Below are positions 1 to 37,698 of a stretch of DNA of 64,000 nt, one piece after another. How positions within the stretch are numbered: position 1 is the stretch's first letter; each line of letters starts with the position of its first letter. Below the pieces are notes generated by a model. That model was not told where the DNA came from and did not search any database. It saw only the letters and a list, made by a program, of their open reading frames with translations. The translations under genes were made by a program, and so were the position numbers. This DNA comes from an uncultured delta proteobacterium (lineage in GTDB: Bacteria > Desulfobacterota > Binatia > UBA9968): positions 128,001-192,000 of the forward strand of contig CAVUZH010000013.1 of assembly GCA_963745835.1 (NCBI GenBank). The letters are read 5' to 3'.

Positions 1-662
1 TTGATCGGCTTCCAGCTTTTGCCCGCGTCATCGGTCCGAAACGCGCCCGCCGCCGAGATGGCGATGTACATCCGATTCGGATCGTTCGAATCTAAAAGGA
101 TCGTGTGCAGGCACATCCCACCGGCGCCGGGCTGCCAGGAGGAGCCTGAGCCGTGGCCGCGCAATCCGGCAAGCTCGTGCCACGACTGACCGCCATTGAC
201 GGAGCGGAATAAGGCGGCGTCTTCAACACCCGCATATATGACGTCCCGATCGGTTAGCGACGGCTCGAGATGCCAGACGCGCTTGAACTCCCAAGGTCGC
301 GCTGTGCCGTCGTACCATTGGTGTGTGGTGAGCGGTTTGCCGCTGTCAGGCGATGAGTCATAAACGAAGTTGTTGCTCTCGCCCTTGGGCGTGCCGTCCG
401 GAGTGGTGGTCGGTTCGCCGGGCGGTGTTCCAGGTTGATGCCAGGTCTTGCCGCCGTCATCTGAGCGTTGAATGATCTGCCCGAACCAACTGCTGCATTG
501 CGATGCAAACAGCCGGTCCGGATCAGCCGGAGATCCCTTGACATGGTAGATCTCCCAGCCCGCAAAATGTGGACCGCTAATGTCCCATCGTTCGCGCTTC
601 GCGTCCGCCGTCAGGACGAACGCCCCTTTCCGTGTACCAACCAGCACTCGTACTTTGCTCAT
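1..662 (-). CDS. WD40/YVTN/BNR-repeat (exo-alpha-sialidase-like) protein, runs off the left edge
   Basis: Not in the ORF track. Manual translation from ATG 662: [17 protein letters not shown]...[16 protein letters not shown]...[10 protein letters not shown] (Asp-box). AAGGAG RBS upstream. Confidence 0.85.
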
Positions 663-950
663 TCCCTTACTCCTTTCTGAATTTCGCGCCTTTGCACGGA
701 ATTTCCACGACCAGCGCGTTTACGCGTGATTCTTACAATGACTTGCCTTGTTTCATTAATATGACGAATGAGCGCGTGCTCACAGGACAGCCGTTCTGAT
801 TTTTTTGGGTCTTCTATCAAATTTTGCAGGATTAAAAGAAAAATTAAAGGCACACGCAGGTGTTTTCCCACCGGATCAGGCGACTCGATGCATGGAGCAA
901 ACGCTTGGACTTCGGTCGTTTAACACTCCTTCTGGCGCGATGCAGCGCGT

Positions 951-1099
951 CTAGCATGGCTATTGAAAAGCTCATAGGCATCGTTGCGCCTAATTACCTG
1001 GAACATGTTCGTGTTCCTTCGGAATTCTCGATCACGTTTTCACGGCCATGATCACGAGGATTGCGCCTTGTGTTTGAAGTCGTTCTGAGCTGCCTGTAA
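951..1099. repeat. Degenerate MITE-like repeat, related to the copy at 63240-63368
   Basis: Shares GAATTCTCGATCACGTTTTCAC with ~63292-63313. Ends (CTAGCATGGCTATTGAAAA ... TTCTGAGCTGCCTGTAA) resemble the GCAGGCTGCTGAAAA-type TIR. Confidence 0.5.
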
Positions 1100-1215
1100 T
1101 CAGAGATTCAGCAACTGCTAAAGCGGCGCTCCCCCCGCAGTGAAGGGGCCGCCGAAATCTCTCTGTTCACTGCCTTATTGTTCGGTGCCGTTTATCAGTT
1201 AAACTAACAATAAAG

Positions 1216-3375
1216 ATGATTGTACCGGATGAAAATGAACTGCTGATAAACCGTGATCTATCGTGGCTCGAATTCAATCGCCGGGTATTGGAAGAAGCCA
1301 AAGATCCGCAGGTTCCGCTGCTCGAAAAACTTAAGTTTTTAGCGATCTTCAGTTCGAATCTCGATGAATTTTTCATGGTCCGCGTGGCAGGCCTTAGGCG
1401 CGAGGTCCAAAATGAAGAACCGAACCCGGATTCCGATACCGCCAATCCGGCGGCGGTATTGGCGGCAATCTCGGAAAAAGTCCATGAGCTAACTGAAGCT
1501 CAGCACGCCTGTTTCCTAGATAATATCCTGCCGCAGCTAACGACCGAAGGTATTCATCTCGTGCGTCCCGAAGAAGTGAACGGAGCGCAGCGTCAGTTTT
1601 TGGAGGAGTTCTTTCATAAGACGCTTTACCCTATTGTTACTCCCTTGGCTGTTGATCCGGGTCATCCGTTTCCATATCTCCCCAATCGGTCACTTTCTTT
1701 AGTGGTAGCGCTGCGGGCTAAAACGGTTTCCCCATTGCCTCATTCGGAAGTGTCGATTGTCCATATTCCCGGTCACGTAGTTCCGCGATTTATTCAACTG
1801 CCGGCAACCGAAGGACGGTACGCGTTTATTCTGCTCGAGCATGTGCTGCGCCGTTATCTGCCGCGTCTCTATCACGGTTTCGAAATTCTCTCCACACACG
1901 CGGTTCGCGTCACGCGCGATGCCGACTTCGGCGTCGTGCGAAAGCGTAACGAAGACCTGATGATGACTATCGAACAAGGCGTGCGAGAACGCAGGATGGG
2001 CGATGCCGTGAGACTGCAGTACGACCCGGATTTACCGAAGGAGCTATTAAGCCAGCTGGTCGAGGAACTCGAGCTGAGTGGCGCCGATCTATATCCCGGC
2101 AGAGGTTTCACCGCGTTTACCGACTTGTTTCAACTTTATCAAAGCGCGAACGTTCCCCGCCTGAAGGATCGCGTTCAGGTACCGGTATCGTTTTCCTGCT
2201 TTGGGCGAGATCATGATCTCTGGAATGCGATTCGAAGCGGAGACGTCATGATCTTTCATCCCTACCAGCCGTTCGATGCTGTAACTCATTTTGTTGAAGA
2301 AGCGGCAAAGGATCCCAAAGTCCTGGCCATCAAAATGACGCTTTATCGGGTAAGCGCCGATTCGCCCATCGCTCAAGCGCTTGCGCGGGCCGCCGAAGCC
2401 GGCAAGGAAGTATCCGTGCTCGTGGAACTGCAAGCGCGCTTTGATGAAGAAGCCAATATCGTTTGGGCGCGCGCCTTAGAAGAAGTCGGCGCTCACGTGG
2501 TCTACGGCTTGATAGGCTACAAGACCCACTGCAAACTCTGTTTGGTGGTACGCCAGGAATCCGACGGCATCCGGCGCTACTGCCACCTGTCCACGGGCAA
2601 TTACAATGTCCGTACCGGCGGCATCTATAGTGATCTTAGCTTATTTACCTGTCGAGAAGATTTTGGCGAGGATCTCACGGAGGTCTTTAACCTTCTCACC
2701 GGCTACACCCGTCCTCAAAGATTTCATCATGTGTTGATGGCGCCGATGAAACTGCGCGAGCGCTTCATTCGCATGATTGAACATGAGACCGAGCAGGCGC
2801 GTGCCGAACGTCCCGCGCGCATCGTTGCAAAAGTAAATAGCCTTATCGACCCTGCTGTTATAGAAAAGCTCTACCAAGCCAGTCAAGCGGGTGTGCAGAT
2901 CGACCTTATCGTCCGCGGAATGTGCAGCCTGCGGCCCGGCATCGCTGGGAGCTCCGAGCGCATTCGTGTGATTTCTATCGTCGATCGTTATCTCGAGCAC
3001 GCGCGAATTTTTTATTTCCAGAACGGCGACCCTCATTCTTTTTGGCTTGCGTCAGCGGACTGGATGCCGCGCAATTTTGACCGCCGTATAGAGATCGCTT
3101 TCCCGGTCATCGAGCCGCGACTGCAAACCAAGCTGAAGGAGATTTTGGAACTGCAACTGGCCGACAACGTTAAAAGCTGGTTGATGCAGCCTGATGGGAG
3201 TTACAGCCGAATCAAAAATAACGACAAACCCGCTTTTCGATTTCAAGAGCGGTTCTACGAGATGCTGCAAGCCGAGGAGCGATCATCGTCCGCGAGCGGC
3301 ATTGGCGGATCGAATTGGCACAACTGTCAAGCAGACGACCTTTCCTATGCGTTCGCGACAGCGGATTCTGATTAA
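1216..3375 (+). CDS. ppk1: Polyphosphate kinase 1
   Basis: NRDLSWLEFNRRVL, SNLDEFFMVRVAGL, HPFP, ARFDEEANI, KTHCK, DRYLEHARI, SADWMPRNFDRRIE motifs. Confidence 0.97.
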   Translation: MIVPDENELLINRDLSWLEFNRRVLEEAKDPQVPLLEKLKFLAIFSSNLDEFFMVRVAGLRREVQNEEPNPDSDTANPAAVLAAISEKVHELTEAQHACFLDNILPQLTTEGIHLVRPEEVNGAQRQFLEEFFHKTLYPIVTPLAVDPGHPFPYLPNRSLSLVVALRAKTVSPLPHSEVSIVHIPGHVVPRFIQLPATEGRYAFILLEHVLRRYLPRLYHGFEILSTHAVRVTRDADFGVVRKRNEDLMMTIEQGVRERRMGDAVRLQYDPDLPKELLSQLVEELELSGADLYPGRGFTAFTDLFQLYQSANVPRLKDRVQVPVSFSCFGRDHDLWNAIRSGDVMIFHPYQPFDAVTHFVEEAAKDPKVLAIKMTLYRVSADSPIAQALARAAEAGKEVSVLVELQARFDEEANIVWARALEEVGAHVVYGLIGYKTHCKLCLVVRQESDGIRRYCHLSTGNYNVRTGGIYSDLSLFTCREDFGEDLTEVFNLLTGYTRPQRFHHVLMAPMKLRERFIRMIEHETEQARAERPARIVAKVNSLIDPAVIEKLYQASQAGVQIDLIVRGMCSLRPGIAGSSERIRVISIVDRYLEHARIFYFQNGDPHSFWLASADWMPRNFDRRIEIAFPVIEPRLQTKLKEILELQLADNVKSWLMQPDGSYSRIKNNDKPAFRFQERFYEMLQAEERSSSASGIGGSNWHNCQADDLSYAFATADSD

Positions 3376-7308: not shown

Positions 7309-7477
7309 AAGGCGACAGATTCTTAGCCGATCTAGGCACAACGATTCTGCCCATCCTGCGAATCCTACGGTTGGTATCAGCCTTACGACATTTCGTGCGA
7401 CAGCGATCGAACAAACCACTGTGAGTCTTTGGTATCTACAGCAGGCCTAAAGATAGAAGTCTGATATGCATTCGCGG

Positions 7478-7507
7478 GATCAAACTGATGAAAAATTAAA
7501 TGTAATT
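7478..7507. repeat. TGA-N8-TCA family palindrome (left end of unit 1)
   Basis: GATCAAACTGA TGAAAAAT TAAATGTAATT, 4 bp from the attC end. Confidence 0.65.
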
Positions 7508-7511
7508 ACAT

Positions 7512-7571
7512 GGATAACGCCGCGGTTCAGCCGCGCGAGGTACGAGCGTCGGCTGGAACCGCCAGTTATGC
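7512..7571 (-). mobile_element. Integron attC site (60 bp) of the GFA cassette
   Basis: Minus strand GCATAAC TGGCGGTTCCAGCCGAC...GCGGCTGAACCGCGGC GTTATCC: R''/L''/L'/R' imperfect palindrome just downstream of the stop. Confidence 0.88.
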
Positions 7572-7589
7572 AGCATGCGGACGCCCCCC

Positions 7590-8018
7590 TTATTCTGGAG
7601 CCGCTGAATACTCCGCGAATACCTCGGCTCCGGTCAGGTTCTTCGTTTGGTTTGCGAACGAATAGAACGACGGCTTTTCATCGATAAAAATCTGTTGATC
7701 AAAGACCCATTGTTCTCCGTCATCGAGTAGACCAACAGGAACCGCGTAGTGCCCTTCTTTCTTTAGGCGGTAGAAAAGATGGCTTCCACACTTACTACAG
7801 AAGCCACGCTCGGCCCAGTCGGAAGAACTGAAGACAGATATGCTGTCATTGCGATCAAAATGAACGTCGCTACCGCACTCAATGAAGAGCAAAGGCCCAC
7901 CTGTCCATTTCCTGCACATACTGCAATGGCAGGCACCCACACTCTTGCTGGTCGTCTTTATTGAAATACGGACTGCCCCGCAAAGACAGCTTCCATCTCG
8001 TTTGGTTTCGCCTGCCAT
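7590..8018 (-). CDS. GFA (glutathione-dependent formaldehyde-activating/CENP-V) family protein, gene cassette
   Basis: GSCLCGAV, CHCSMCRKWTG, RGFCSKCGSHL. GAGGAGG RBS. Bounded by GTTATGC (8042-8036) and the complementary GCATAAC attC. Confidence 0.93.
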   Translation of the reverse strand: MAGETKRDGSCLCGAVRISIKTTSKSVGACHCSMCRKWTGGPLLFIECGSDVHFDRNDSISVFSSSDWAERGFCSKCGSHLFYRLKKEGHYAVPVGLLDDGEQWVFDQQIFIDEKPSFYSFANQTKNLTGAEVFAEYSAAPE

Positions 8019-8035
8019 ATCGTCCTCCTCAAATT

Positions 8036-8223
8036 GCATAACTATTAAGTAAGCCGCCGTAGGAGGCGACAAAGGCCGATCGGCCTATCTCGGAACACAG
8101 CTCGGATTTCGAATTACAAACGGCTCGCAATCTCGTCCACTTGAACCAACTCATCAAGAAACATTTTGACCGCCAAACACCGCGCGGCATGGCGGCCTAT
8201 CTACTGGCTCGCAGCCTATTTCG
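8036..8223 (-). mobile_element. attI-like platform, copy 1
   Basis: Non-coding. 41/53 ungapped identity by hand count to 31803-31855, with patchy similarity for ~190 bp. Ends at the GTT where the cassette starts. Three GCCTAT(C/T)T repeats. Confidence 0.7.
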
Positions 8224-8260
8224 TGCGCTAGATTAGAGTCAAGCTCTGTAATCAACGTGA

Positions 8261-8299
8261 GATTGAATTTGATCGATTGATCCGTCAGTTCGATTCAGC
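8261..8299. repeat. TGA-N8-TCA family element, deleted form (right end of unit 1)
   Basis: GATTGAATTTGATCGA...TCAGTTCGATTCAGC. Terminal part is the inverted match of GCGGGATCAAACTGA at 7474-7488 (12/15). Confidence 0.6.
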
Positions 8300-8344
8300 T
8301 CGCCTTTAATGTAAAAGAAGATGACGGGATAGGTTGCAGAGGTG

Positions 8345-8773
8345 CTATTGGATCCGGAATACTGGATGTCGTGACGCTTCGGCAACAAAATCCGGCAGAT
8401 TCGACTTCGGTGTTACGTCAAAGAACGGCCGTACCACAGGCACTTGAGTCAGATACTTCTTTAGCACCGGGGCGGCGTCCTCCGCCGAGAGTTCTAGAAT
8501 TCTTACGTTCTCAAATCTCCGACCCCGTGTTAAGGTTATCTGCTCGGCTGCACGAGCGTTTCGCACCCAGCCCACCTCACCATACGGGGCCACTAGCCAG
8601 CGTTCGCCGGCCCGTTCCACCAGTGTCACGGGCGTTGAGTAGGCGTGACCGCTCTTTCTGCCTCGCACGGTCAGAAGATAGGTATGCGGAGGACTTACGC
8701 CAAGGCGCAGCAAGACACCAATCATCCAATTGATTAGTCGGCGCCACAATCCTAACCGATATGCTCGAGCCAT
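8345..8773 (-). CDS. Nitroreductase-family deazaflavin(F420)-dependent oxidoreductase
   Basis: LLTVRGRKSG...TPV, WVRNARAA, HPVFRI motifs. Confidence 0.9.
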   Translation of the reverse strand: MARAYRLGLWRRLINWMIGVLLRLGVSPPHTYLLTVRGRKSGHAYSTPVTLVERAGERWLVAPYGEVGWVRNARAAEQITLTRGRRFENVRILELSAEDAAPVLKKYLTQVPVVRPFFDVTPKSNLPDFVAEASRHPVFRIQ

Positions 8774-8821
8774 TGTGATCTTGTGTTTGCAGGAACCCGA
8801 AAACCTCAACCTCTTGCATCA

Positions 8822-8852
8822 AGAATTTGTGAAAGGAGAAATCAGTTCAACA
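8822..8852. repeat. TGA-N8-TCA family palindrome (B-type spacer) abutting attC
   Basis: ...TTTGTGAA AGGAGAAA TCAGTTCAACA, matches 41480-41509 and 32054-32083. Confidence 0.65.
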
Positions 8853-8855
8853 TAG

Positions 8856-8918
8856 GGTTAACGCTCCGGTTGAGTCGCGCGAGTTTTACGGCCGTTGGAC
8901 TTCAACCGGTTGTTGGGC
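8856..8918 (-). mobile_element. Integron attC site downstream of the sulfotransferase gene
   Basis: Minus strand GCCCAAC AACCGGTTGAAGTC...GCGACTCAACCGGAGC GTTAACC imperfect palindrome. Confidence 0.78.
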
Positions 8919-8980
8919 AACCGTGTCGATAACTCAAACTGGCTTATTGCGTTCCTTTTTTCTCTTCCGGACGAGTTTGT

Positions 8981-10090
8981 TCACAGAGCACCAGCCGTCG
9001 CTGTCGCTCTAGCGATCTCCTCTGCACTGTACCTGTAGGCGCGGAATACTCGATTGTGTTGCGCGTTTGACGGTCCGCCAAAATAGGGATTCACATATTC
9101 CCAAACCACTTCTCCATTTGACGTAACCTCAAAGAGTCGACCGAAATCGCCTTCGCAGATCAGTGTGTTGCCGTTGGCTAACCGCTGCGCATTGGAAATC
9201 CTCGGACTGAAAAAATCGCTTTCTCGTTTTTCCCTATATTCCCAGACGATTTGCTTGGTTGCGGGCTCGACCTCAATGACCCGCGAAAAAGGCATCGCAT
9301 GATCTAGCCGATGAGGCCCGTTGTCGAAGATGAGCAGGTTGCCACTGGGCAGCGGCGTGGGCGCATGTTGGCCGCATAGCGGCGGCGCGCCGAGTTTCCA
9401 GATAATCTTCCCGGTTTTTCGGTCGATAATGATGATGGTGGAGATCGTTCGAAAGCTCACGACGATGTCGCCATTAGGCAGCTCGGCCACGCCGTTGCCA
9501 TGCGCCCATTCTTCTCGCCGTTCTTGAACTGCCGTAATGCAATCAATCTCGGGATCGAGATGTTCCCAAGTGCGCCATTCCCAAACCACATCGCCTTGGG
9601 TCGTCATCTCGACCAAATAATCCGCGTACATCCCACCCTGGTGCTCCGTCCCGGGCATGCCCCCTCTAACTTTTGCGACCAGATGCTGCGGAAGGCGATC
9701 CAAGCAGAGCAGCAGAACGTTGCCGTTGCGCAATCGTATGCCATCGTGATGATGATCCGGATGACGTACTTCCCAGAGAACGCGTCCGTTCCAATCTGCT
9801 TCGAGCACGGCGCCGCCCTTCCACGGTTGCCCGCTGATGAAGCGTTCTGAATCCTCCGCGGTCTTTCCATTGTAGAAGAGCGTGCCTCTCTCAGTCAGAT
9901 AACCGTAATTACCTGGAGGATAAGGCATCTGCCAACTATGAATTGCCTTCCCATCGAGATCGATGAGGTAGACATTGCCCCCGCCGCTCATCGGCGCGAA
10001 CAAAGTCAAGCCCGGAAAGGCTCGGTCGTGATCTACCGCGCGCAAACCAGTACCAGCGCGCTTAAGCTTGTTCTGTTCCACGACCGGCAT
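8981..10090 (-). CDS. Aryl-sulfate sulfotransferase (ASST)-like beta-propeller protein
   Basis: HHHDG, WAHGNG, GQHAP, FDNG, SNAQRLANGNTLICEG, VWEYVNPY. Confidence 0.88.
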   Translation of the reverse strand: MPVVEQNKLKRAGTGLRAVDHDRAFPGLTLFAPMSGGGNVYLIDLDGKAIHSWQMPYPPGNYGYLTERGTLFYNGKTAEDSERFISGQPWKGGAVLEADWNGRVLWEVRHPDHHHDGIRLRNGNVLLLCLDRLPQHLVAKVRGGMPGTEHQGGMYADYLVEMTTQGDVVWEWRTWEHLDPEIDCITAVQERREEWAHGNGVAELPNGDIVVSFRTISTIIIIDRKTGKIIWKLGAPPLCGQHAPTPLPSGNLLIFDNGPHRLDHAMPFSRVIEVEPATKQIVWEYREKRESDFFSPRISNAQRLANGNTLICEGDFGRLFEVTSNGEVVWEYVNPYFGGPSNAQHNRVFRAYRYSAEEIARATATAGAL

Positions 10091-19539: not shown

Positions 19540-22500
19540 CTACAACGCCGCGGTTATCGGCAGCGAAAAAGTAAAACTCGATCCCTTGCCAACCTCGCTC
19601 GTCAGCCAGATTTTGCCGCCGTGCAGCTCGACAAACTTCTTCGCCAAAGTTAATCCGAGTCCGGTCCCTTCGCTCTTGTGCTCGTAATCGGAGCCTACCT
19701 GGCGAAACTCCTCGAAGATCCTGGGCTGGTCCTCAGGCGCGATCCCGATGCCTGTGTCAGTTACCGAGATCTCCACAGCACCGTTACTTTGTATCGCGTT
19801 AATTTCGATCCGGCCTCCCTCCGGGGTGAACTTCACCGCGTTAGACAGCAGATTAAGAAGGATCTGCTTGATCTTTCGCTCGTCGCCGATGAAATCCCCG
19901 AGGCGCTCGTCAATCGCGACATCAACCGTGATGCCATGCCGTGTGGCGCGCTCGCGGACAAAGGTGCGCGCATTGTCTATGGCTAAAGGAAGATCGAATG
20001 TAGCCAGCTCCAGTTCCATGCGGCCGGCCTCGACCTTGGCGAGATCGAGTATCTCATTGATGAGAGATAAAAGATGGCGGCCGGAGGAAAGGATGTCTTC
20101 GGTGTACTCGGCCTGTTTTTCGTTTAATTCACCGAACAGTCTTTCGCCCAATACTTCGGAGAAGCCGATGATGGCATTGAGCGGCGTGCGTAGCTCGTGC
20201 GACATGTTGGCGAGGAATTCGGATTTGTGCCGGTTCGCCGCTTCGATCTGCCGGCTCTTGTCTTCGATCTCGCGGAATAGCCGGGCGTTTTGAATCGCCA
20301 ACACCGACTGCGTCGCAAAGGTTTTCAGAAGCTCGATGACTTCGGGGCGAAACTCGCCGGTCGATTTGCGCCGTACCACCAACCCGCCGATGATGCGGTC
20401 TTCACGCAGCAAGGGAACGGCCAGGCTGGCACGGAAACCGAATCGCTCGAGCAACTGCCGCATGCGCGGCGCGTAAGCGCGCTCTTCTAAGATATTGGGA
20501 ACTTGCACGGGTTCACGGCTCGCCGCGGCCCGTCCGACCACTCCGTCTCCTAACCGTGGTGGATGGGCGCGCAGCGCAGTGATGAGTTCCTCTTCCATAT
20601 GATCGGTGGCGCGCAGGAGAAACTCTTCCGAGGGCTCGTCGTATTCGTAAATCGCCCCGCCGTCGGTGCCGCTTAACTGAACCGCATGGGAAACGATTCT
20701 CGTCAGCACGGTTTCGAGATCTAGAGTCGAGCTTACCGCTTGACCGACTTCGCCGAGCGCTTTCAATTCGCCTACCGAGCGAGTCAATTCGTTGGTGCGT
20801 TCATCTAATTCTTTGAACAGTCGGACATTCTCGATGGCGATGACGGCTTGAGCAGCAAAAGTTTCGAGCAATTTGATTTGTTTGTCTGAGAAGGGTCGAA
20901 CCTCCATTCGCCTAATATTGATTGCGCCAATGGGAGTTCCCTCTCTGAGCATCGGCGCGCTAAGAAATGTCCGGACTCCCCGGCGTACGCCCTCGCTGTC
21001 AGGGAATTCCGTTTTAACTTCCTGGAGATCATGAATATGTAAGGTCTCCCGAGTAGAAATCGCTCGGCCCGTAGGGTTTCCCGGTATGGTGAGCCTAAAC
21101 TCCGGGGCTGGGAGAGTTCCAAACGATGCTGCTAATCGTGTTCCGTCACCCTCAATCAGACGAATCTGTGCATCAGTTGCTTCGCAGAGTCGGGCGGCAT
21201 TTACTGCCACGGTATCTAACACCGGCTGAATATCGGTCGGCGAACTGGCGATGACACTGAGGATCTCGCTCGTGGCAGTTTGCTGTTCCAGAGATTCCTT
21301 TAATTCGGTGAACAGCCGGACGTTCTCGATGGCGATGACCGCTTGATCGGCGAAAGTTTTGAGAAGAGCGATTTGCTTATCGGAGAACGGGCGGACTTCG
21401 GTTCGGCGAATCAAAATAGCTCCGATTGCAACCTCTTCGCGAAGCAATGGTGCAGCCAGGAGAGTACGAATACCGAGTGGTTTAGAGAAAGCATAGCCTT
21501 CGGGAAACTCGGCCTGAGCCTCAGGCGTCAACACGTCAGCTAGGTGTATAACCTCGCGGTCAATCATAGCTCTGCCTGGAGGTAGACCCCGGATGAGAGG
21601 TCTAGCTGAACCGCTTTGAGCAATAGGCATCGTTCCATGAGAGGCCACATGCCGATAGCCGCTGCCGTCAATACGGTAAATAATGGCATCGGTTGCATCA
21701 CAAACTCGCGCGGCATTTTCTGCAACCACATCAAGACAGGCTGAATATCCGTCGGCGAGCTGGCGATCACGCCCAAGATCTCGCTGTCGCAGTTTGCTGT
21801 TCCAGGATTCTTAGTTCGTGAACAGCCGGACGTTTTCGATGGCGATCACCGCTTGGTCGGCGAAGGTTTTAAGAAGAGCGATTTGCTTATCTGTGAACGG
21901 ACGAACTTCGGTTCGCCGGATCAAAATAACTCCGATTGCAACCTCTTCGCGAAGCAGTGGTGCAGCCAGGAGAGTATGAATACCGAGTGGTTTAGAGAAA
22001 GCATAGCCTTCGGGAAATTCGATCTGAGCCTCAGGCGCCAACACATCAGCTACGTGTATAACTTCGCGGTCAATCATAGCTCTGCCTGGAGGTAGACCCC
22101 GGATGAGAGGTCTAGCTGAACCGCTTTGGGCAATAGGCATCGGTTCCATAAGAGGCCACAGGCCGATAGTCACTATCGTCCATACGGTAAATAATGGCAT
22201 CGGTTGCATCACAAACTCGCGCGGCATTTTGTGCAACCACATCGAGCACGGGTTGAATATCGGTCGGTGAGCTGGCGATCACGCCGAGGATCTCGCTGGT
22301 CGCCGTCTGCTGTTCTAACGATTCTTTGAGTTCTTGAAACAACCGCACGTTCTCGATGGCGATGACCGCTTGGTCGGCGAAGGTTTCGAGAAGCTTGATC
22401 TGTGCCGGAGTGAAGGGGCGCACCTCAGTGCGGCGTGCGAACAATCCTCCAACGACTTTTCCATGCTGACGGAGGGGAGCGCCTAAGAACGTGCGCCATC

Positions 22501-25500
22501 CGCTGAGAGAAGGGACAGGTGGAAGATCGTTTTGAGCACGGACATCGGGCACGTGGAGCACGCCATGCTCGCCCATCCAGCGAATCCATGGTTCGTCATC
22601 ATGAATCTCGATGTGTACGACGGGTATGGACCCAATATGAGCTCGCGGAATCATGGTGTTTCCGTCCCTGCAGGCGCAGCAGCACGTCATCGATCCCACA
22701 AACCCGCGCCGCGCTTTCGACAATGGCGTCGAGGACCGGCTGCACGTCTGTCGGCGAGCGGCTGATGATGCCGAGCACCTCGGCGGTTGCGGTCTGATGC
22801 TCCAGGGCTTCGTGCAACTCTGCGTTGCGCTCCTGGAGTTCTTTGAACAGCCGCACGTTCTCAATAGCGATCACTGCCTGGTCGGCAAAAGTCTTGAGAA
22901 GCGCGATCTGTTTGTCTGTAAAGGCACCAGGGTACGATCGGTTTACCCCGATGGCTCCGATGGGCCGTCCTTCGCGGAGCAGCGGCGCGGCTAAGAGAGC
23001 TTTGACCTCTCCGGCATTCTCCGCGTGCAGTCGGAAATCAGGATCTTGTCGTACGTCGGGTATGTGGATCACCGTGGAATCCAGAACTGCACGTTCCATT
23101 GCGGATTCTCTGGTTGGATGGTGCGGGAATCTTCGCCGCATGGCATCGTGCGCTTCCGCCGAGACATTATGCTGGGCAGCTAAGTGGACCATCTCGCCAT
23201 CGAAGCGGACCACGCTGCATCCTGACCCCTCGCACAATCGAGCAGCGTTCTTGACGATAGTGTCGAATACTGGCTGAACATCCGTTGGCGAACTGCTGAT
23301 AACAGAAAGAATCTCACTCGTGGCGGTCTGTTGCTCCAACGATTCGGTGAGATCGCGGTTCCGAATTTCGAGTTCCTTGAACAAGCGGACGTTCTCGATA
23401 GCGATGACCGCTTGGTCGGCAAAGGTTTTGAGGAGCGCAATCTGCTTCTCGAGTAAAGGACGGACTTCGGTGCGGCGGATCATGATCGCTCCGATGGCGA
23501 TACCTTCGCGCAGTAACGGAGTAGCTAAGCATCGTGCGAATCGCCATACTGTGCGACGATACTCCAAGCTCGGAAATTCCTTCTACACGCTCAGCATCAT
23601 GTCTGCATGATGGACAATTTGCCGGTCCACAACCGCACGGCCGACTAACGGACATCCGATCTTAACGGTCGCGTCCCGCCGATGGCAAGATCGGCCACGG
23701 AATATGAACCATAGCTGCAGCTTCAAGACGGATCATTCGCCTTCGACACGGTCAGATTGTCGCATCGTTTGCGTCACACAGACGCGCGCCGCATTCTCGG
23801 CGACCGTATCCAGCACAGGCTGAATATCGGTCGGCGAGCTAGCTATGACGCCCAGGATCTCGCTGGTCGCTGTCTGCTGCTCCAATGCTTCTTTCAGTTC
23901 TCGGAATAATCGCGCGTTCTCGATCGCTATCACGGCCTGGTCGGCGAAGGTTTCGAGGAGCTTGATCTGCGCCGGGGTGAAGGGGCGGACCTCGGTGCGA
24001 CGTGCGAACAGTCCTCCAATCAGTTCGCTTTGCTGACGAAGGGGAACGACCAGGAAGGTCCGCCAGCCGCCGGTAACCGCCATCCGTGAATCGGTCTGGT
24101 CACTGGCGTCGGGAATGTGCAGCGTGCCATGCTCGCGCATCCAGCCAAACTGTGGCTCATCGATACTGATTTCGACGCGGTTGATAACTAAGGGACCAAA
24201 ATGAGCCCGACAAACCATGGCGTTGCCGTCTTGGAGTCGCAACACCACATCATCGATCCCGCAAACCCGCGCGGCGCTCTCGACGATCGCGTCGAGCACC
24301 GGCTGCACGTCCGTGGGCGAGCGGCTGATGATGCTGAGCACCTCGGCGGTGGCCGTCTGATGCTCCAGGGCTTCGCGCAATTCGGAGTTGCGCTCTTCTA
24401 GTTCCTTGAACAGGCGCACGTTCTCGATGGCGATGACCGCCTGGTCGGCGAAGGTTTTGAGGAGAGCGATCTGTTTTTCCGAAAAAGGACGTACTTCGGT
24501 TCGGCGAATATGAATTGCCCCGATCGCAAGTCCTTCGCGCAGTAATGGAGTAGTTAAGATAGTTCGGATCTTGCCGGTGTGAAAACTATCTGAAAATTCC
24601 GCTCTAAACTCCGGCACCAAAACGTCGTGGATGTGCACGGTTTCTTTGTCGATCATCGCTCGGCCGCTCGGAATCGAGCGAATCAGTGGCCGACGCTTCT
24701 CGGAATCGGCCACTGGAGTTGAACCATGCGCCGCGACAAGCCAAAATTCATCGCCGTCAGTACGCCAGATCGCCGCATCGCCCGCATCGCAGAGTCGCGC
24801 GGCGGTCTTGGCGACGATGTCGAGGACAGGCTGAAGGTCCGTCGGCGAGCTGGCGATGACGCCAAGAATCTCATTGGTGGCGGTCTGTTGTTCCAATGAC
24901 TCCTTGAGCTCGTTGAATAATCGTACGTTCTCAAGCGCGATAACAGCCTGATCGGCGAAGGTTTCAACAAGTTTGATTTGATTGTCGGTGAATGGCCGCA
25001 CTTCGTTGTAATGAGAAGTGACGATCACCCCGAGCAGCGTGTCTTCTTTGAGCAACGGCACGGCTAAAGTGCTGAGCCGGTTCTCCCTGCGATACGCATC
25101 GGTCTGGTAAGCATCGAAGCCAGCCGCGGCGACAACATCAGGCACGTGAATGGTTCGTCGCTCCAGAGCCGCGCGTCGGCTTGCAGTCTCTGTTCCGGGC
25201 CGGACCGAGTAGTTTTCCATACGCGCCATATTCTCAGGATCGAGATTGTGTCCCACGGCGAATCGCAGAAATTCGCCATCGAACCGGAATAACGCGGCGT
25301 TCTGTGTGCCGCACAGACGTGTAGCGTTGGCGAGGATCGTCTCGAAGACCGGCTGCAAGTCGGCCGGCGAACTGCTGATCGCGCCCAGAATCTCACTGGT
25401 CGCAGTTTGTTGCTCCAGCGCTTCGCTCAGATCGCGGTTGCGATCCTGCAATTCTTTGAACAGACGAACGTTTTCGATGGCGATGACCGCCTGGTCGGCG

Positions 25501-27848
25501 AAAGTTTTGAGAAGCGCGATTTGCTTGTCTGAGAATGGACGAACCTCAAGACGACGGAAATGAATAACTCCCGAGCGCGACGCCTTCGCGTATCAACGGG
25601 ACGGCAAGAAACGTTCGCGCGACAATCTGACGGCGAGTTTCAAGCATCTCTGGATATTCCGACTCAATCAGCTGATCCACATCCTCATGATGGATAATTG
25701 CCTGATCCATCACGGCTCGCCCTGGCGGTGATTGCCGGTTGATAGGGCGTTCTACCGCTACGTGGGGTATTGATCCGTAATGAGCTGCCAAGCGCAGCAC
25801 GTTTCCATCCACCAACCGCAACACGCCGTCTTTCGCGCCGCACACTCGCGTGGCACGCTCGGTGATGGTTTCTAAGGAGTAACGGCTTGCTGCATGGGTT
25901 CCGCGTGTTGAAATTCGTTTTCAATATCCGCGGCGAGCTCATGGATATGGATCGTTTGCCGATCGAGAATTGCTCGACCGGCGGGCCGTCCACGAGCGAT
26001 CGACATTCCACCCCGGCGAACTGATGGGCATGTAACCATAGACAGCCGCTACTCGAAGAAGGTTACCGTCAGACGATGGATGACGGCCTCTCTGGAATCA
26101 CACAGCTTCGCGGCGTTTTCAGCGACCACGTCCAAGCACCGGCTGGATGTCCGTCGGCGAGCTAGCGATGACGCCCAGGATCTCGACTGGTCGCTGTCTG
26201 CTGCTCCAATGCCTCTGTGAGTTCTTTGAACAGCCGCACGTTCTCGATCGCGATCACGGCCTGATCGGCAAAGGTCTCGAAAAGCTTGATCTGCGCCGGG
26301 GTGAAGGGACGAACTTCGGTGCGACGGGCGATCAGCAATCCAATGAATTCGCTTTGTAGTCGAAGCGGTGCGGCTAAGAAGCAGCGAAAGCCGCTGGCGA
26401 CACCAAACACTGAAAAGTCATCCTGCGCGGCGCGGGTGTCTGGAATGTGGAGCGTGCCATGCTCGCGTATCCAGCGAAAATGTGGGGTGCGGTCAATATT
26501 TAGCTCAACACGGCCACTGGCTATGGATACCGGACCAACATGAGCCCGCGCAACTACAACGTCACCCTCACGCAGTCGCAGCACCACGTCATCGATACCG
26601 CAAACCTTCGCGGCGCTCTCGACGATGGCGTCGAGCACCGGCTGCACGTCCGTCGGCGAGCGGCTGATGATGCCGAGCACCTCGGCGGTTGCGGTCTGAT
26701 GCTCCAGGGCCTCGCGCAATTCCCTGTTGCGCTCGCCGAGTTCCTTGAATAAGCGCACGTTCTCGATGGCGATAACTGCTTGATCGGCGAAGGTTTTAAG
26801 AAGAGCGATCTGTTTGTCCGTGAAGGGGCGAACTTCCGTGCGACGGATTACGACATTTCCAATCGCATCGCCCTCTCGCAGCAATGGCGTAGCCAGGATC
26901 GTGCGCACGCCGGTACGTTCGTAAAGTGTTCTGGCTCCCGGAAATTCAGTATCAAACCCTGCACTAATATCGTGGATGTGAATCGTCTGCCGATCGATAA
27001 TGGCTCGCCCGCCCACATGGCCTCGGTTGAAAACACTCGCTTCGTCGGGCGTAGCCATTGAGCCATAAGAAGCCACTCGACGAAGAAGATCACCCTCAAC
27101 CCGATTGATCTGGGCATCCGTTGCACCGCACAGCCGAGCGGCATTCTCCGCCACCACATCAACACTGGCTGGATATCCGTCGGCGAGCTGGCGATAACCT
27201 GGAGAATTTCGCTCGTGGCAGTCTGCTGCTCGAGATTCCGCATTCCGAGTTGGAGATTCACTCGATTTTTTTGCTGCGAGTTCTTCAAACAGCCGAGCAT
27301 TCTCAATCGCGATCACCGCCTGGTCCGCGAAGGTTTCCAGTAACTTGATCTGCCGCTCTGTAAAAGGTCGAGCCTCGATGCGGCGGAGCAGTATCGCTCC
27401 AATCGGAACACCCCGTCTAAGCAATGGCGTTGAGAGTACAGTCCTATTGCCGTGGCGCTGCGCAAGTTCCCGTGCCCGTGGATACTCCGATACTGGTGTA
27501 TTCAAGATGTCGTGAACGTGAATCGTTTGTCTGTCCAGCATCGATCGGCCCGCGACACTGCCCCGGTCGAGCGGCACACGTTCCTGGCGGGGAGTGACAG
27601 AAATCGGACCATAAGAAGCCACGGCCCGATGTCCCTCATCATCAAGACTCAAAATTTGCGCATCGATAGAATTGCACAACCGCGCTGCGCGCTCGGCAAT
27701 CGCGTCAAGCAAATGCTGAAGATCGCCTGTCGCCGTGGCGATCATCCGCAGGATGTCATTGGTGGCGTTCTCCCGCTGTAACGATTCCGCGAGTTCTCGC
27801 CGCACCTCGGCAATCGTTTGCGCTTTCTTAGATACTCGGCGCTTTCAC
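19540..27848 (-). pseudogene. Giant multi-GAF (~14-15 GAF) histidine kinase, split by many frameshifts
   Basis: [11 protein letters not shown]-type motif counted 14 times across ORFs 26162-27805, 25546-25845, 23733-25451, 22599-23567, 22112-22864, 21811-22242, 19540-21729. C-terminal MSHELRTPL and HATPase boxes intact. Confidence 0.85.
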
Positions 27849-29303: not shown

Positions 29304-30338
29304 CTACTTCGACTCCAGAATCTGTTTAACTCGCTTGACGATCGAGGGCTCGATTTCATACAAGCCCTGCACCATCTTCTCTATGCCGGGTCCATCGATT
29401 GAGTCGATCTCGAGCTTCGCCTTTTCTGCCTCAGCCTTAAGCTGAGGATCCTTGAGAGTATCGATAAAGGCTTTCTGCAGTATTCGCACGCGCTCTTCGG
29501 GGACTTGTGGCGGAAGCGAATAGAGCCTTTGTTTGCCGTAAAGCTCGCTAGCGATCTGAAGGAGCTTTTTGCTTTCGTCGGTTTTGGCGTAATCGACAGC
29601 GAGAGGGACACCCTTCAGCTCGGGATGAGATTCAAGCATCGTCTGCAGCACAACGTGAACCTCTCTTGCCTTCAGCGCGTTGGCCCAAGTCACCTTCGCC
29701 GATTGCCATCCAAAGGCGCAGGTCCCATCGACTTCACCTGTTTCCGCGGCAATTCTGATATCGGCGGTACCCTTGTACCCCTCGATCAGCTGCAGGGGAA
29801 AACCTGTGGCGGCGGCGAGGAGCTTGGTATCATCGGTTCCGCTTGTGCCGGGGCCGATGGCCCCCAGCTTGACCGGTGTTTTAGCCTTGCGCCAATCCTC
29901 CGCCGTTTTTATTCCGCTGCGTTCGGTCGTGATGCATATGAGGGAATCCGCCGTCGGCATGCCGAGCCAGCCAAACTTGCGCCCGTCAAATTGCACCGCG
30001 GGGTTACCCATCAAGTGCTGCAGAATGAGAGGACCGGACCAATGCCCGATGACTGTTCCATCGCGAGGAGCGCTGTTGAAGACGAAATTGGCCGCAATCA
30101 GCATGGCTGCTCCAGGCATGTTTTGAACGACTGTGGAGGGTTTGCCGGGAACGTATTGAGAGAAGTAGCGCGCTATTAGCCGGGTGTAAGTATCATAACC
30201 TCCACCGGCGGATCCACCGACGATGAACTGAATTGCTTTGCCCTTGTAGAACTCCTCGACCGAGGCAGCAATCGCCGACGTGACCAGCGATCCCGAGATA
30301 AAGATAGCAAGCAAAAGTCCACAGAGTGCTTTGGTCAT
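29304..30338 (-). CDS. Tripartite tricarboxylate transporter substrate-binding protein (Bug/TctC)
   Basis: FYKGKAIQFIVGGSAGGGYDTYTR, QNMPGA, GYKG. Confidence 0.92.
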   Translation of the reverse strand: MTKALCGLLLAIFISGSLVTSAIAASVEEFYKGKAIQFIVGGSAGGGYDTYTRLIARYFSQYVPGKPSTVVQNMPGAAMLIAANFVFNSAPRDGTVIGHWSGPLILQHLMGNPAVQFDGRKFGWLGMPTADSLICITTERSGIKTAEDWRKAKTPVKLGAIGPGTSGTDDTKLLAAATGFPLQLIEGYKGTADIRIAAETGEVDGTCAFGWQSAKVTWANALKAREVHVVLQTMLESHPELKGVPLAVDYAKTDESKKLLQIASELYGKQRLYSLPPQVPEERVRILQKAFIDTLKDPQLKAEAEKAKLEIDSIDGPGIEKMVQGLYEIEPSIVKRVKQILESK

Positions 30339-30456
30339 GACCTACCTCCGGGTGATTTGTCTATTCTGGCCGGAGGCTAAGTTGCCCGCGGGGCTCATGT
30401 CAAGCGGTTTGAGAGAAGCTAATCAAAGAGACGCCATATGACACCGAAGCAATTAG

Positions 30457-30515
30457 ATTTGAATTGATCGACGCTTCAACTAAATTCAAGAGGTCTGATG
30501 ATAGGATCAGATGGT
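30457..30515. repeat. TGA-N8-TCA family palindrome (A-type) plus degenerate second site; left end of the TIR unit
   Basis: ATTTGAATTGA TCGACGCT TCAACTAAATT, then GGTCTGA TGATAGGA TCAGATGG. Confidence 0.75.
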
Positions 30516-30685
30516 CGGTTCTAACTTTGAATGCCCCCACCACTTTTGTTAACGTCCGCAAATTTCCGCGGCGAATGCGCTGCCTTAAAAACGTTAATGG
30601 AACTGTAGCTAAATAGTACTGCCTATTGGCAGCCTGCAGATGCAGCGAAATATGAAAACTTTCGACAAGACTACGGTCGGGGGAT

Positions 30686-30934
30686 TTACAGATTGGGATC
30701 AAAATCGATGACGATCTCAGAAGATGCTTCGGGGTAAAGTTTCTTCGCCCATGCGAGCAGATCTTCTGCGCTTCTACGCTCGCATTGAATGTTTACCACC
30801 GTATAGTCGCCTTCCGCATTGCTTACGTCTGTAATTACCCCGGCTTTCAAAAGTTGATACTCGTTGCTGACGCTTTTGCAACGGCTCAGAAGGCCATTGT
30901 AAAGCTCTATTGGGATTGTGACCAGAACGCTCAT
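30686..30934 (-). CDS. Small hypothetical protein
   Basis: 82-aa ORF, globular composition. Confidence 0.5.
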   Translation of the reverse strand: MSVLVTIPIELYNGLLSRCKSVSNEYQLLKAGVITDVSNAEGDYTVVNIQCERRSAEDLLAWAKKLYPEASSEIVIDFDPNL

Positions 30935-31025
30935 ATTTCACGACTTCCAGTTAGTCGACTGACCAAGCCGCGCCAGCTGTTACAGGTGCTAAAAAGTTAC
31001 TTCTCAAGCCGGTTGTTGGACGGCA

Positions 31026-31778
31026 TCAAACTTTAGCCTTCAACTTTGCTGCCCATTGTCGTCCGAGATCCGTTAGCGCAACTATATCTGCAATGTCATA
31101 CACCCCATCTGATTTGAGCTCTCCAATATTCCGGCCACTGTGCTTTCGAATCAGTCCTATCGAACGGAGATGTCGCAGTTCTGAACGGACAATACCACCG
31201 CCTTTGTAGCCCCTCGTCTTGCCATCTGCGATATTTAGGAGGTGCTTCTGCTCTGGTTCTGGGATCAAGACTGATAGCACTAAACCTATGTCTTGCGGGT
31301 TCGGCACCGCCGCGTCATGTAACACTGCGTGCTTACGAATTGTAGTACGAATATCGTGACACGCTGGGCCCAACGCGGCTTGAAGTCGATCGGGTCGAGA
31401 AGGCGGCTGGAACCTCGCGGTCGTAATGCCAAGCAAGTCAGTGGGCAGGTGGAAGTCCGCCGAATCTTTCGGCATCAATATGAAACTACGGTCTCGACCA
31501 AGACGTCCGATGAAAAGACCAAGTTCAAAAACAACATTGTCCCTGGCCGTCACCATTTCCATGCCACGTATTTTGATCAGGTCATCGGGACCGAAAATGA
31601 ACAAGCCGAATTCTGTGTCTTCGAGCGCCTCCAGTAACGATTCAAGATAGGACTTGGTCAGCTCAAAGATACCTTGCGTCCATACAATGACTTCCGCCAC
31701 GTCCTCAAGGTTTTTCTGAGCTGCGTATGCCACGTCGAGACTCTCAGACGAAGATCCAACAAAAAGGGCTGGTTTCAT
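31026..31778 (-). CDS. TIR-like nucleotide-binding protein (CAP12/Pycsar-effector TIR family), gene cassette
   Basis: LFVGSSSES, WTQGIF, FGPDD, ARDNVVFELGLFIGRLG, PTDLLGI. Flanked by GTTAGACGGC (31806-31797) and GCCGTCCAAC (31024-31015). Confidence 0.9.
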   Translation of the reverse strand: MKPALFVGSSSESLDVAYAAQKNLEDVAEVIVWTQGIFELTKSYLESLLEALEDTEFGLFIFGPDDLIKIRGMEMVTARDNVVFELGLFIGRLGRDRSFILMPKDSADFHLPTDLLGITTARFQPPSRPDRLQAALGPACHDIRTTIRKHAVLHDAAVPNPQDIGLVLSVLIPEPEQKHLLNIADGKTRGYKGGGIVRSELRHLRSIGLIRKHSGRNIGELKSDGVYDIADIVALTDLGRQWAAKLKAKV

Positions 31779-31796
31779 CGACAGTACCTTTCTGCT

Positions 31797-31990
31797 GCCG
31801 TCTAACTATTAGGTGAGCCGACGTAGGCAGCGAGAATTAGCGGTCAGCCTATCTCCGCGACGGCTCGGACAAAAATGGTCCAAATCATTCGCAATATCCA
31901 TCAGGTAACCGAGCTTTGTCAACGTAAGTCTCCGCGAAAAGCCGACCGGCACGGCGACATATCTACTTAACAATCGGCGGCTTATTTCGG
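31797..31990 (-). mobile_element. attI-like platform, copy 2
   Basis: Homologous to 8036-8223, ends at GTTAGAC just upstream of the TIR gene RBS. Confidence 0.7.
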
Positions 31991-32013
31991 CCAGACCATC
32001 GCGAAAGCCCGGG

Positions 32014-32086
32014 CAGGATTGAACTGAACGACGCTTCAATTTGATTTCACGCAGATTGGTTTGATGGAGAATTCAGTTCAATGCTG
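32014..32086. repeat. Complete double-palindrome element (A+B)
   Basis: GATTGAACTGA ACGACGCT TCAATTTGATT - 7 nt - GATTGGTTTGA TGGAGAAT TCAGTTCAATG. Outer CAGGATTGAACTGA/TCAGTTCAATGCTG inverted. Confidence 0.88.
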
Positions 32087-32821
32087 GCATCGCAGAACAC
32101 CGCCGCACCCGCTGATTAAGAGTTCTGCCGGCGTAATCAAGTGGCCCAAGAAGATCCAAGCAGGCCCAATGATTAGAGCGCTCCGATTGCTTGATCATTG
32201 AGTTTGTTTGGGTCTCTTGGGGGAGCAGTTCTCGGGCAAAACACGGACACTGTAAACTCTAAATGGTTCATCAATTTCGCGCGAAACCGACCGTCTTCCG
32301 CAGAGCTCTTGAATGCCTTCAAAAGCCGATCGTCACTAGAACCTAAACACGCCGTCAAAAGACAATAGAACCAAGCCCCGAGAGCTTTCTTTATTGGAAG
32401 GTCTTGGGGCTTGTTGTTTCTGCTGTACGGACAAAAGGCGGACAAGAACCGCTTTTATTAGGATTTGAAGGTTTCATGAAGCACCTCTGCAGTACAGTAA
32501 GCAGGGTACAGCTCTAGAGGAGACAACTAGCTATTATGATGATTAGCCTTCGCATCATCCTTCCGCTGATAGTGAGCTACCGAGAAAATTTCGTATTAAC
32601 TTCAGCTTCGCGTCGGTGCCAATGCGACAAAATCGGTGTAGCAGGAATAAGTCTGCGAAAAAGGATCGCCGTCTGATCCGAAAATAATAAAAGTCACGAG
32701 CGAACCCCCCCATATAGAGACTCTTGCTTCCGATAAAGATATTCCGAGTAGTTTTATTGACGTCTCCTCCTGCATTTCCCAGGAGCCCCTGGTCCATCTT
32801 GGACTTTGATTAATAAGTATA

Positions 32822-37244: not shown

Positions 37245-37432
37245 GGGATTCCTCCTCTCAGAAGCTGTTTGAAATCCGGGCGTAAGATTAATTCGTTGGA
37301 GAAGGCTGAGAAGCGCGAAGCGGCTTTGTCTAGCCGTTGGTTAAGCATTGTCAACTAGTCTGGTCGGCAGTATATCCCACATCGGCGGTGGCGTATATTC
37401 AATATACCGTCACGAAACGCCCTTCTCCTCCG

Positions 37433-37507
37433 CAGGATTGAATTGATTCGACGCTTCAATGTGATGTGACGCGAAATCGCGCTGAAGGAGAATTCAGTTC
37501 GATCTCG
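37433..37507. repeat. Complete double-palindrome element (A+B)
   Basis: GATTGAATTGA TTCGACGCT TCAATGTGATG - 8 nt - AATCGCGCTGA AGGAGAAT TCAGTTCGATC. Confidence 0.85.
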
Positions 37508-37698
37508 GCGGGTAACGCATCACTCGGCCTTTATCAGCAGATCAGTCTAAAGGGTGAAGTTAAGACGACCTTCTGCGTAATATTTGATTCCTTCGAGGCA
37601 TACATTTCGATTACACTTACACCCATCACAGATCTCGCCTAACCGCCCAGCGGCTCTCCGGAAGCTTGGGCGGTCCACGCTTTATTTGCTGAATTAGA

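Follow-up and report, generated by a model that had tools for sequence, protein, structure and literature searches.

The 64,000-nt stretch of DNA analyzed here (the window), taken from contig CAVUZH010000013.1 of an uncultured delta proteobacterium of the Binatia, probably carries a piece of an integron without its integrase, in which an attI site of a recognizable family (8223-8042) holds one inserted GFA cassette and a second attC site lies 1.3 kb upstream. All coordinates are positions in the window, and the features of the main locus are read on its minus strand. The analysis shows the anatomy of the cassette and its attC, the membership of the preceding DNA in the attI family, and the absence of any intI gene or relic from the window. 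As defined for IntegronFinder, a CALIN is a cluster of attC sites lacking an integron integrase (PMC4889954), and the locus, with its recognizable attI still in place beside one intact cassette, is an integron remnant of the CALIN type; two clustered attC sites were found, the second by similarity to the first, with no intI in the window.

The GFA cassette and its attC sites

The cassette comprises 524 nt (8041-7518, minus strand), from its first bases TTATGC (8041-8036) to its last, the G of R' (7518), and contains an open reading frame (ORF) of 142 aa (8018-7590, minus strand) with an ATG at 8018, a ribosome-binding site (RBS) GAGGAGG at 8030-8024, and a match to the GFA family (Pfam PF04828, 8.2e-19). 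On the minus strand the locus reads ...CTTAATAG|TTATGC, the RBS, the GFA ORF, GCATAAC...G|TTATCC, and then ATGTAATTACAT. The extent of the cassette follows from its first bases, since the start G|TTATGC (8042-8036) complements the R'' of its own attC, GCATAAC, at 7 of 7 positions, while the present R', GTTATCC, is off by one base. With both strands counted, the window contains the 9-mer AGTTATGCA just twice, at 7564-7572 on the plus strand, where it is the complement of R'', and at 8035-8043 on the minus strand, at the 5' boundary of the cassette, and its restriction to these two places puts the boundary beyond chance. The boundaries G(8042)|T(8041) and G(7518)|T(7517) given in a preliminary description of this DNA are confirmed by these two results, as is its remark that the cassette start complements its own R'' and the terminal TTATCC does not.

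The attC site that ends the cassette (attC#1; 7571-7512, minus strand) is 60 nt long and falls inside the range of 57-141 nt given for attC sites in PMC12901181. It consists of R'' GCATAAC (7571-7565; 7 nt), a spacer of 5 nt, an L'' of 8 nt that has one extra base relative to the 7-nt L', the loop, a spacer of 6 nt, and R' G|TTATCC (7518-7512; 7 nt). Relative to the core-site consensus as given in the same source, R'' agrees with RYYYAAC at 6 of 7 positions and R' with G|TTRRRY at 5 of 7, the AAC and the GTT being exact. The bottom strand, which is the plus strand of the window, folds at -20.7 kcal/mol (z -2.54), a value equaled or bettered by 2 of 200 shuffles, whereas the fold of the top strand is weaker (z -1.69; 11/200 shuffles), and the single-base bulges sit on the R''-L'' arm of the hairpin. 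Box layout, fold, and Pfam match together bear out the earlier claim of an intact GFA cassette with a canonical attC. Here and below, attC calls rest on box layout, on folds, and on a covariance model of our own making, not on the model of IntegronFinder.

A second predicted attC site (attC#2; 8918-8856, minus strand; 63 nt, R'' GCCCAAC, R' G|TTAACC) lies 1345 nt from attC#1 and in the same orientation. It is identified by its likeness to attC#1 (48 of 68 positions identical, loop included) and by its box architecture, not by fold energy. A covariance model of both window sites (model R1) found only these two in the window and matches an attC in one other genome (L011, E 0.038). A generic scan of the window for attC-like hairpins was unspecific, giving 12 matches compared with 0-14 in five shuffles, and only attC#1 stood out; a consensus of six attC sites by MAFFT and RNAalifold predicted no pairs, the alignment not being a structural one.

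Nothing unusual is implied about the GFA gene itself. Its protein has 6391 relatives at E <= 1e-10, the closest 94% identical, and the named relatives at 77-84% identity come from a Gammaproteobacteria metagenome-assembled genome (MAG), a Scytonema strain, and a Beijerinckiaceae MAG. This spread, taken from protein matches only and not from genomic context, would fit a gene that travels.

The attI family and its putative promoter

A BLAST search of the window with the 304 nt upstream of the GFA cassette revealed a second copy at about 31806-31967, and the two copies align as far as TAATAG|TTA and then diverge, one into the GFA gene and the other into a gene for a TIR-domain protein. External loci were collected by a single scan of genome contigs for the junction pattern CCTACGNCGGCTNACNTAATAG, by which diverged copies are missed and among whose matches the genome that provides the window does not appear. 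The 11 loci obtained are mostly from MAGs labeled Candidatus Binatia or "uncultured delta proteobacterium", with one each labeled Syntrophobacter sp. SbD2, Anaerolineales, Omnitrophota, and BD1-7. At eight of them the alignment with the window copies covers the ~190 nt upstream to the contig limit, and at two (L005 and L007) only the final ~60 nt; L010 was an unrelated chance match and was dropped from the family by the alignment.

A profile of 191 positions, built solely from the 10 external loci with the window copies excluded, gave only two strong full-length matches in the window with nhmmer, at 31991-31804 (E 1e-38, profile positions 2-191) and at 8223-8040 (E 3.6e-28, profile positions 4-191), the next match having an E of 0.21. 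The former defines attI-b (31991-31806, minus strand), a second full-length copy with its crossover G at 31806, and the latter attI-a (8223-8042, minus strand), an orphan element of 182 nt with its crossover G at 8042 and its last ~70 nt intact. No plasmid matched attI-b (blastn, E 1e-3). At one external locus (L008) an integron-integrase gene of the same orientation ends ~20 nt before the family element, and this integrase matches TIGR02249 with a C-terminal piece of 299.8 bits (cut-off 265) and an N-terminal piece of 150.6 bits. By sequence, then, the 182 nt before the GFA cassette are shown to belong to an attI family that abuts an integron integrase in L008; neither window copy itself adjoins an integrase gene, unlike the L008 homolog. 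The attI-like site seen in the preliminary description upstream of the cassette is thereby upheld, and the alternative-cargo version that it had called for exists in attI-b, which stands before the TIR gene, and in the different cassettes of other genomes.

Family membership bears directly on the notion that the cassette went off target into a secondary attG-type G|TT site of ordinary chromosomal DNA with no attI. There is no integrase nearby, CALINs have been proposed to arise in this way (PMC4889954, PMC8618304), and the attG route is on record (10.1101/2022.09.11.507474), but the target is not ordinary DNA, being a full-length member of a family found next to intI in L008 and in front of cassettes elsewhere, and we regard an off-target insertion as very improbable.

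The point at which the copies part company is also constant. Similarity stops at TAATAG|, and after the junction G 11 of the 12 copies continue with TT, the starts being TTAGGC (three copies), TTATGC and TTGAAC (two each), and TTAGAT, TTAGAC, TTGATC, and TTGGGT (one each). At most loci a different cassette begins at this same G|TT. The complement of the first 7 nt recurs at most 2 kb downstream in 6 of the 12 copies, and five of the 12 have a recurrence of the R'' type ending in AAC (L001, L003, L008, L011, and attI-a). Clean attC hairpins of 51-69 nt are present in L001, L006 (with one mismatch), L008, L011, and the window. The element itself sits in varied neighborhoods, two in the window and others in L003, L004, and the pair L001/L006. 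In L003 it follows a gene for a GAF histidine kinase, and the ortholog of that gene in the window (20957-19557, 80% over 1405 nt) is not followed by the element.

Upstream of the junction, TTGACA-17/18-GATATT ends 87-88 nt before it in 8 of the 9 copies that span this region, including attI-b, where a promoter scan found TTGACA-18-GATATT at 31922-31893. The exception is attI-a, with a degenerate TTGATG (8157-8152)-17-GAGATT (8134-8129). The motif GAGATARGCYGAC lies near -50 in 7 of 12 copies and GAGATA..CCGCC at about -160 in 5 of 12, compared with a background of 6 matches in the whole window on both strands, and the repeat-like motif of attI-a near -50 does not satisfy the strict pattern. 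The attI1 site carries the direct repeats DR1 and DR2 (PMC12901181), and by analogy the GAGATA..CCG.C repeats may be integrase-binding sites.

These conserved hexamers, well kept in all spanning copies apart from attI-a, could also be taken to mean that the ~190-nt element is a mobile or duplicated promoter or leader (a regulatory RNA or operator) placed before diverse genes, the attC behind the GFA gene being a leftover, and 6 of the 7 evaluable external loci do lack intI. Against it stand the similarity that ends exactly at G|TT in all copies, the TTRRRY-like starts, to which the R'' of an attC farther downstream is complementary in five copies, and the position of the element just behind intI in L008; integrons in any case have a promoter inside or near attI (PMC4889954). 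A search of Rfam gave no family for the element either: the window as a whole had no match at gathering thresholds, 7400-9000 none at E <= 5, and 30300-32500 a chance miRNA match only. We consider this explanation improbable.

Integrase, possible cassette exchange, and relation to known integrons

The window provides no integrase of its own. Pfam scans of 63 window ORFs gave no tyrosine recombinase or integrase, and tblastn of the L008 integrase across the 64 kb revealed no intI relic, its best match (E 0.059) falling within an unrelated gene. A pair of external loci from related genomes, L001 and L006, is informative in this respect, as they are 94.9% identical over the 1036 nt that follow their single cassettes and the cassettes are unrelated, that of L006 being a frameshifted set of ORFs. 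This looks like the replacement of a cassette at an orphan attI. No integrase is encoded within 2 kb in L006, and such a replacement would need an integrase supplied in trans, which suggests an integrase that acts in trans.

For the locus in the window, an IntI encoded elsewhere, or once encoded beside the site, would have joined the folded bottom strand of the attC of a circular cassette to attI, the joining point lying between G(8042) and T(8041). The insertion would have left TTATGC at the start of the cassette, so that the attC now ends in the old right side of the site, TTATCC. Having no promoter of its own, the cassette would be expressed from the promoter position of the element, ~87 nt upstream of the crossover; since the hexamers of this copy are degenerate, transcription running on from the preceding gene, which has the same orientation, is an alternative. 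Were attI and attC to recombine again, the cassette would come out as a 524-nt circle, and ...TAATAG|TTATCC... would remain. The empty site of the preliminary description can indeed be written in this form, and its occurrence is the part that was not borne out, as no empty copy was seen, reads not having been searched for one.

The TIR cassette region (31805-31000, minus strand) begins after G|TTAGAC, and its TIR gene (31778-31026, minus strand), the first gene behind attI-b, matches the Pfam family CAP12-PCTIR_TIR (5.3e-29) and a TIR effector of PADLOC (2.3e-45), and reaches 119.7 bits with the NCBIfam Cap12 model, below its cut-off of 450; the product is Cap12/PycTIR-like. The gene is thus a candidate for anti-phage cargo in the form of an integron cassette. 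Behind it, all that remains of the attC is its 5' half, in which an R''-like GTCCAAC (31021-31015) differs at a single position from the complement of the first bases of the cassette; this half-attC shares the 11-mer CCAACAACCGG with attC#2, and no hairpin forms there.

The truncated attC of the TIR cassette, the degenerate promoter hexamers of attI-a, and the lack of intI in the window would all be expected if the locus were the dead relic of a complete integron that lost intI by deletion and has nothing active in it now. Such a relic is conceivable but on balance unlikely, as neither copy has a remnant of intI beside it, the GFA ORF and attC#1 are intact, as is attI-a over its last ~70 nt, and the comparison of L006 with L001 points to the replacement of a cassette at an attI that has no integrase gene within 2 kb. 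A further possibility would be a 'distributed integron', in which a module of attI and promoter, uncoupled from intI, is scattered to several chromosomal places in this lineage, among relatives of the Binatia-labeled MAGs, and each copy still takes up and exchanges single cassettes by means of a trans-acting integrase; we raise this tentatively and would sooner doubt than assert it.

The preferred reading, an orphan attI with an inserted cassette, has to be set against several results that weigh the other way. Among the seven external loci with enough upstream sequence (L002-L008), intI stands beside the element in L008 alone; L002-L007 have other genes upstream, no integrase within ~1.8 kb, and no relic by tblastn. 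The identification as attI therefore leans on one genome, and in that genome the two integrase pieces lie in different frames, the gene being frameshifted in the record. The test of R'' complements is modest, with 5/12 compared with a null of 18/122 mismatched pairs (~0.02 by our own binomial estimate), and the sixth raw recurrence (L005) is not attC-like. The fold of attC#2 is no better than those of shuffles (z -0.18 and -0.55), and the promoter hexamers of attI-a are degenerate, with no consensus detected there by the promoter scan.

Some sequences at the junction in other genomes deserve a separate mention. The single cassette of L001 (146-675, plus strand) is toxin-antitoxin-like by ORF reading, with a 74-aa antitoxin-like ORF and a ParE/RelE-like C-terminus in another frame. 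L004 (native 493-1859, minus strand) and L009 (native 71-1075, minus strand), from MAGs labeled as different phyla, have nearly the same sequence after the crossover, TAATAG|TTGAACTAAACCGCTGCGCGGTGG..., which encodes a tyrosine recombinase (Phage_integrase plus a SAM-like domain), with an IS91-type zinc-binding transposase domain in addition in L004. The shared sequence has the look of a mobile element that went in precisely at the attI crossover. In L002, whose attI junction is at 2022, a group II intron maturase domain (GIIM, 2e-12; native 2110-2631, minus strand) comes immediately afterwards, opposite in strand to the cassettes. Group II introns are known to associate with integron sites.

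CALINs and their proposed origins, as well as attC-ORF-delta-attI architectures, are already in print (PMC4889954, PMC8618304, PMC12901181), and the origin of CALINs is debated (PMC4889954, PMC8618304); no publication on this attI family or on integrons in Binatia was found in one search of an open-access library. With its two attC sites in the same orientation, cassette-sized genes between them, and no intI or pseudogene in the window, the locus is like a CALIN, and it differs in that an attI is recognizable and has been retained between the two attC sites. The integrase, the attI element, and the cassettes of L008 all run in the same direction, as in Treponema-type chromosomal integrons, in which intI is, atypically, transcribed toward attI and the cassettes (PMC3607928), whereas the window has no integrase. 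With the attI1 of class 1 integrons the element shares a crossover after G followed by TTRRRY, and its upstream repeats and promoter-like hexamers may correspond to the direct repeats and the nearby cassette promoter of attI1 (PMC12901181), a comparison of features and not of sequence; it is about three times longer than the 65-bp attI1. A preprint on engineered attI1 (10.64898/2026.03.17.712381) has no bearing on the locus.

The order of genes upstream of attI-a invites one further comparison. An arylsulfotransferase-like ORF (10090-8981, minus strand) comes first, with attC#2 downstream of it, and between attC#2 and attI-a lies a nitroreductase-like ORF (8809-8345, minus strand; Pfam PF04075, 4.2e-07), whose product resembles a deazaflavin-dependent nitroreductase or F420H2 quinone reductase (NCBIfam TIGR00026, 45.9 bits, slightly below the cut-off of 46.35). 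This ORF, flanked by attC#2 upstream and attI-a downstream, recalls the attC-ORF-delta-attI architectures reported as unusual attI-type cassettes of mobile integrons (PMC12901181); under the tentative reading of a distributed integron, the order attC#2, ORF, attI-a suggests that attI modules may also move as attI-type cassettes. As described in that source, however, those are short remnants of attI1 or attI2 in clinical class 1 and class 2 arrays beside intI, whereas the attI in the window is of full length (~182 nt), belongs to another family, and has no integrase. No attC fold was found in 8035-8345, from the nitroreductase-like ORF to the GFA cassette (z -0.59 to +0.36), where ~300 nt between the two have no credible ORF, and GTTGGGC, sought as the 5' boundary of the cassette that ends in attC#2, is absent upstream of the arylsulfotransferase-like ORF.

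The attI sites of most integrons are unknown, and CALINs are usually described by attC alone. The family described here is recognizable by sequence across several genomes, including those of soil and sediment bacteria, and can be aligned across MAGs labeled as four phyla, in contrast to the poor conservation of attI sites stated in PMC3607928. Because the family is recognizable by its sequence, this CALIN can be said to have kept its docking site and its promoter position. The 190-nt profile is a handle for finding integrase-less platforms elsewhere, and the L001/L006 pair makes trans-integrase activity at orphan attI sites testable.

Proposed inverted ends and other features of the window

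The preliminary description had treated the locus as a complete unit of ~825 bp bounded by inverted ends, GCGGGATCAAACTGA on the left (7474-7488, plus strand) and TCAGTTCGATTCAGC on the right (8285-8299), which would amount to an autonomous 'mini-integron', resembling a miniature inverted-repeat transposable element, with its own attI and one cassette and mobile as a unit. The two ends do match in inverted orientation at 12 of 15 positions, and the right one lies within a short imperfect hairpin (8299-8262, minus strand) just upstream of attI-a; the left one coincides with no assignable feature. The match is, however, at chance level, since 200 shuffles gave 29 cases (14.5%) of at least 12/15 between zones of 100 nt and 304 nt, and 37 (18.5%) of 200 real pairs of window zones with the same spacing did as well. 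Moreover, the ends have no flanking direct repeat or target-site duplication and are not repeated in the window, the conservation of the attI family at attI-a begins at 8223 and not at 8299, and attI-b and the 10 external copies share nothing outside attI on either side. What stands of the earlier proposal is the inverted match itself; the complete unit does not hold, and the 'mini-integron' model is largely refuted and hardly credible.

Nothing beyond attC#1 is conserved in the attI-b copy or in other genomes. The sequence ATGTAATTACAT, which abuts the R' of attC#1, is a perfect 12-nt palindrome (7500-7511) in an AT-rich stretch that would border an empty attI on its right, and a convergent RidA-like gene ends ~200 nt beyond attC#1.

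Elsewhere in the window, an imperfect hairpin repeat of ~40 nt, with the core TTGAAGCGTCG-TCA-TTCAATCC, occurs in five intergenic copies, all in one orientation (30489-30452, 32050-32009, 36290-36249, 37470-37427, and 42997-42959, minus strand), four of them upstream of minus-strand genes according to the ORF list. Two copies (32010-32100 and 37425-37515) extend to hairpins of ~75 nt with AAC...GTT/ATT ends (z -2.68 and -1.15). One repeat stands immediately before attI-b, a position at which L002, too, shows a weak copy (E 0.0085). Their box layout sets the repeats apart from canonical attC sites. The idea that they derive from the 3' end of intI was considered and rejected, with no support from tblastn and with repeats occurring away from attI, and the inverted ends discussed above are not halves of this repeat, as neither GCGGGATCAAACTGA nor TCAGTTCGATTCAGC scores with the repeat profile at E <= 20; the short hairpin at 8299-8262 does not score with it either.

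The window also has a run of five or six GAF-domain ORFs on the minus strand (19540-27805; 729, 143, 322, 572, and 547 aa), which share repeated segments with one another and with L003 in many BLAST pieces and include near-identical short stretches at 21678-21731 and 22189-22242. A sensor kinase gene that was duplicated in tandem and is now partly broken may lie behind this run. Finally, two adjacent ORFs on the minus strand, 48620-47877 and 49280-48858, match the C-terminal and the N-terminal part of FAD_binding_2, respectively, and may represent a split or frameshifted oxidoreductase gene.

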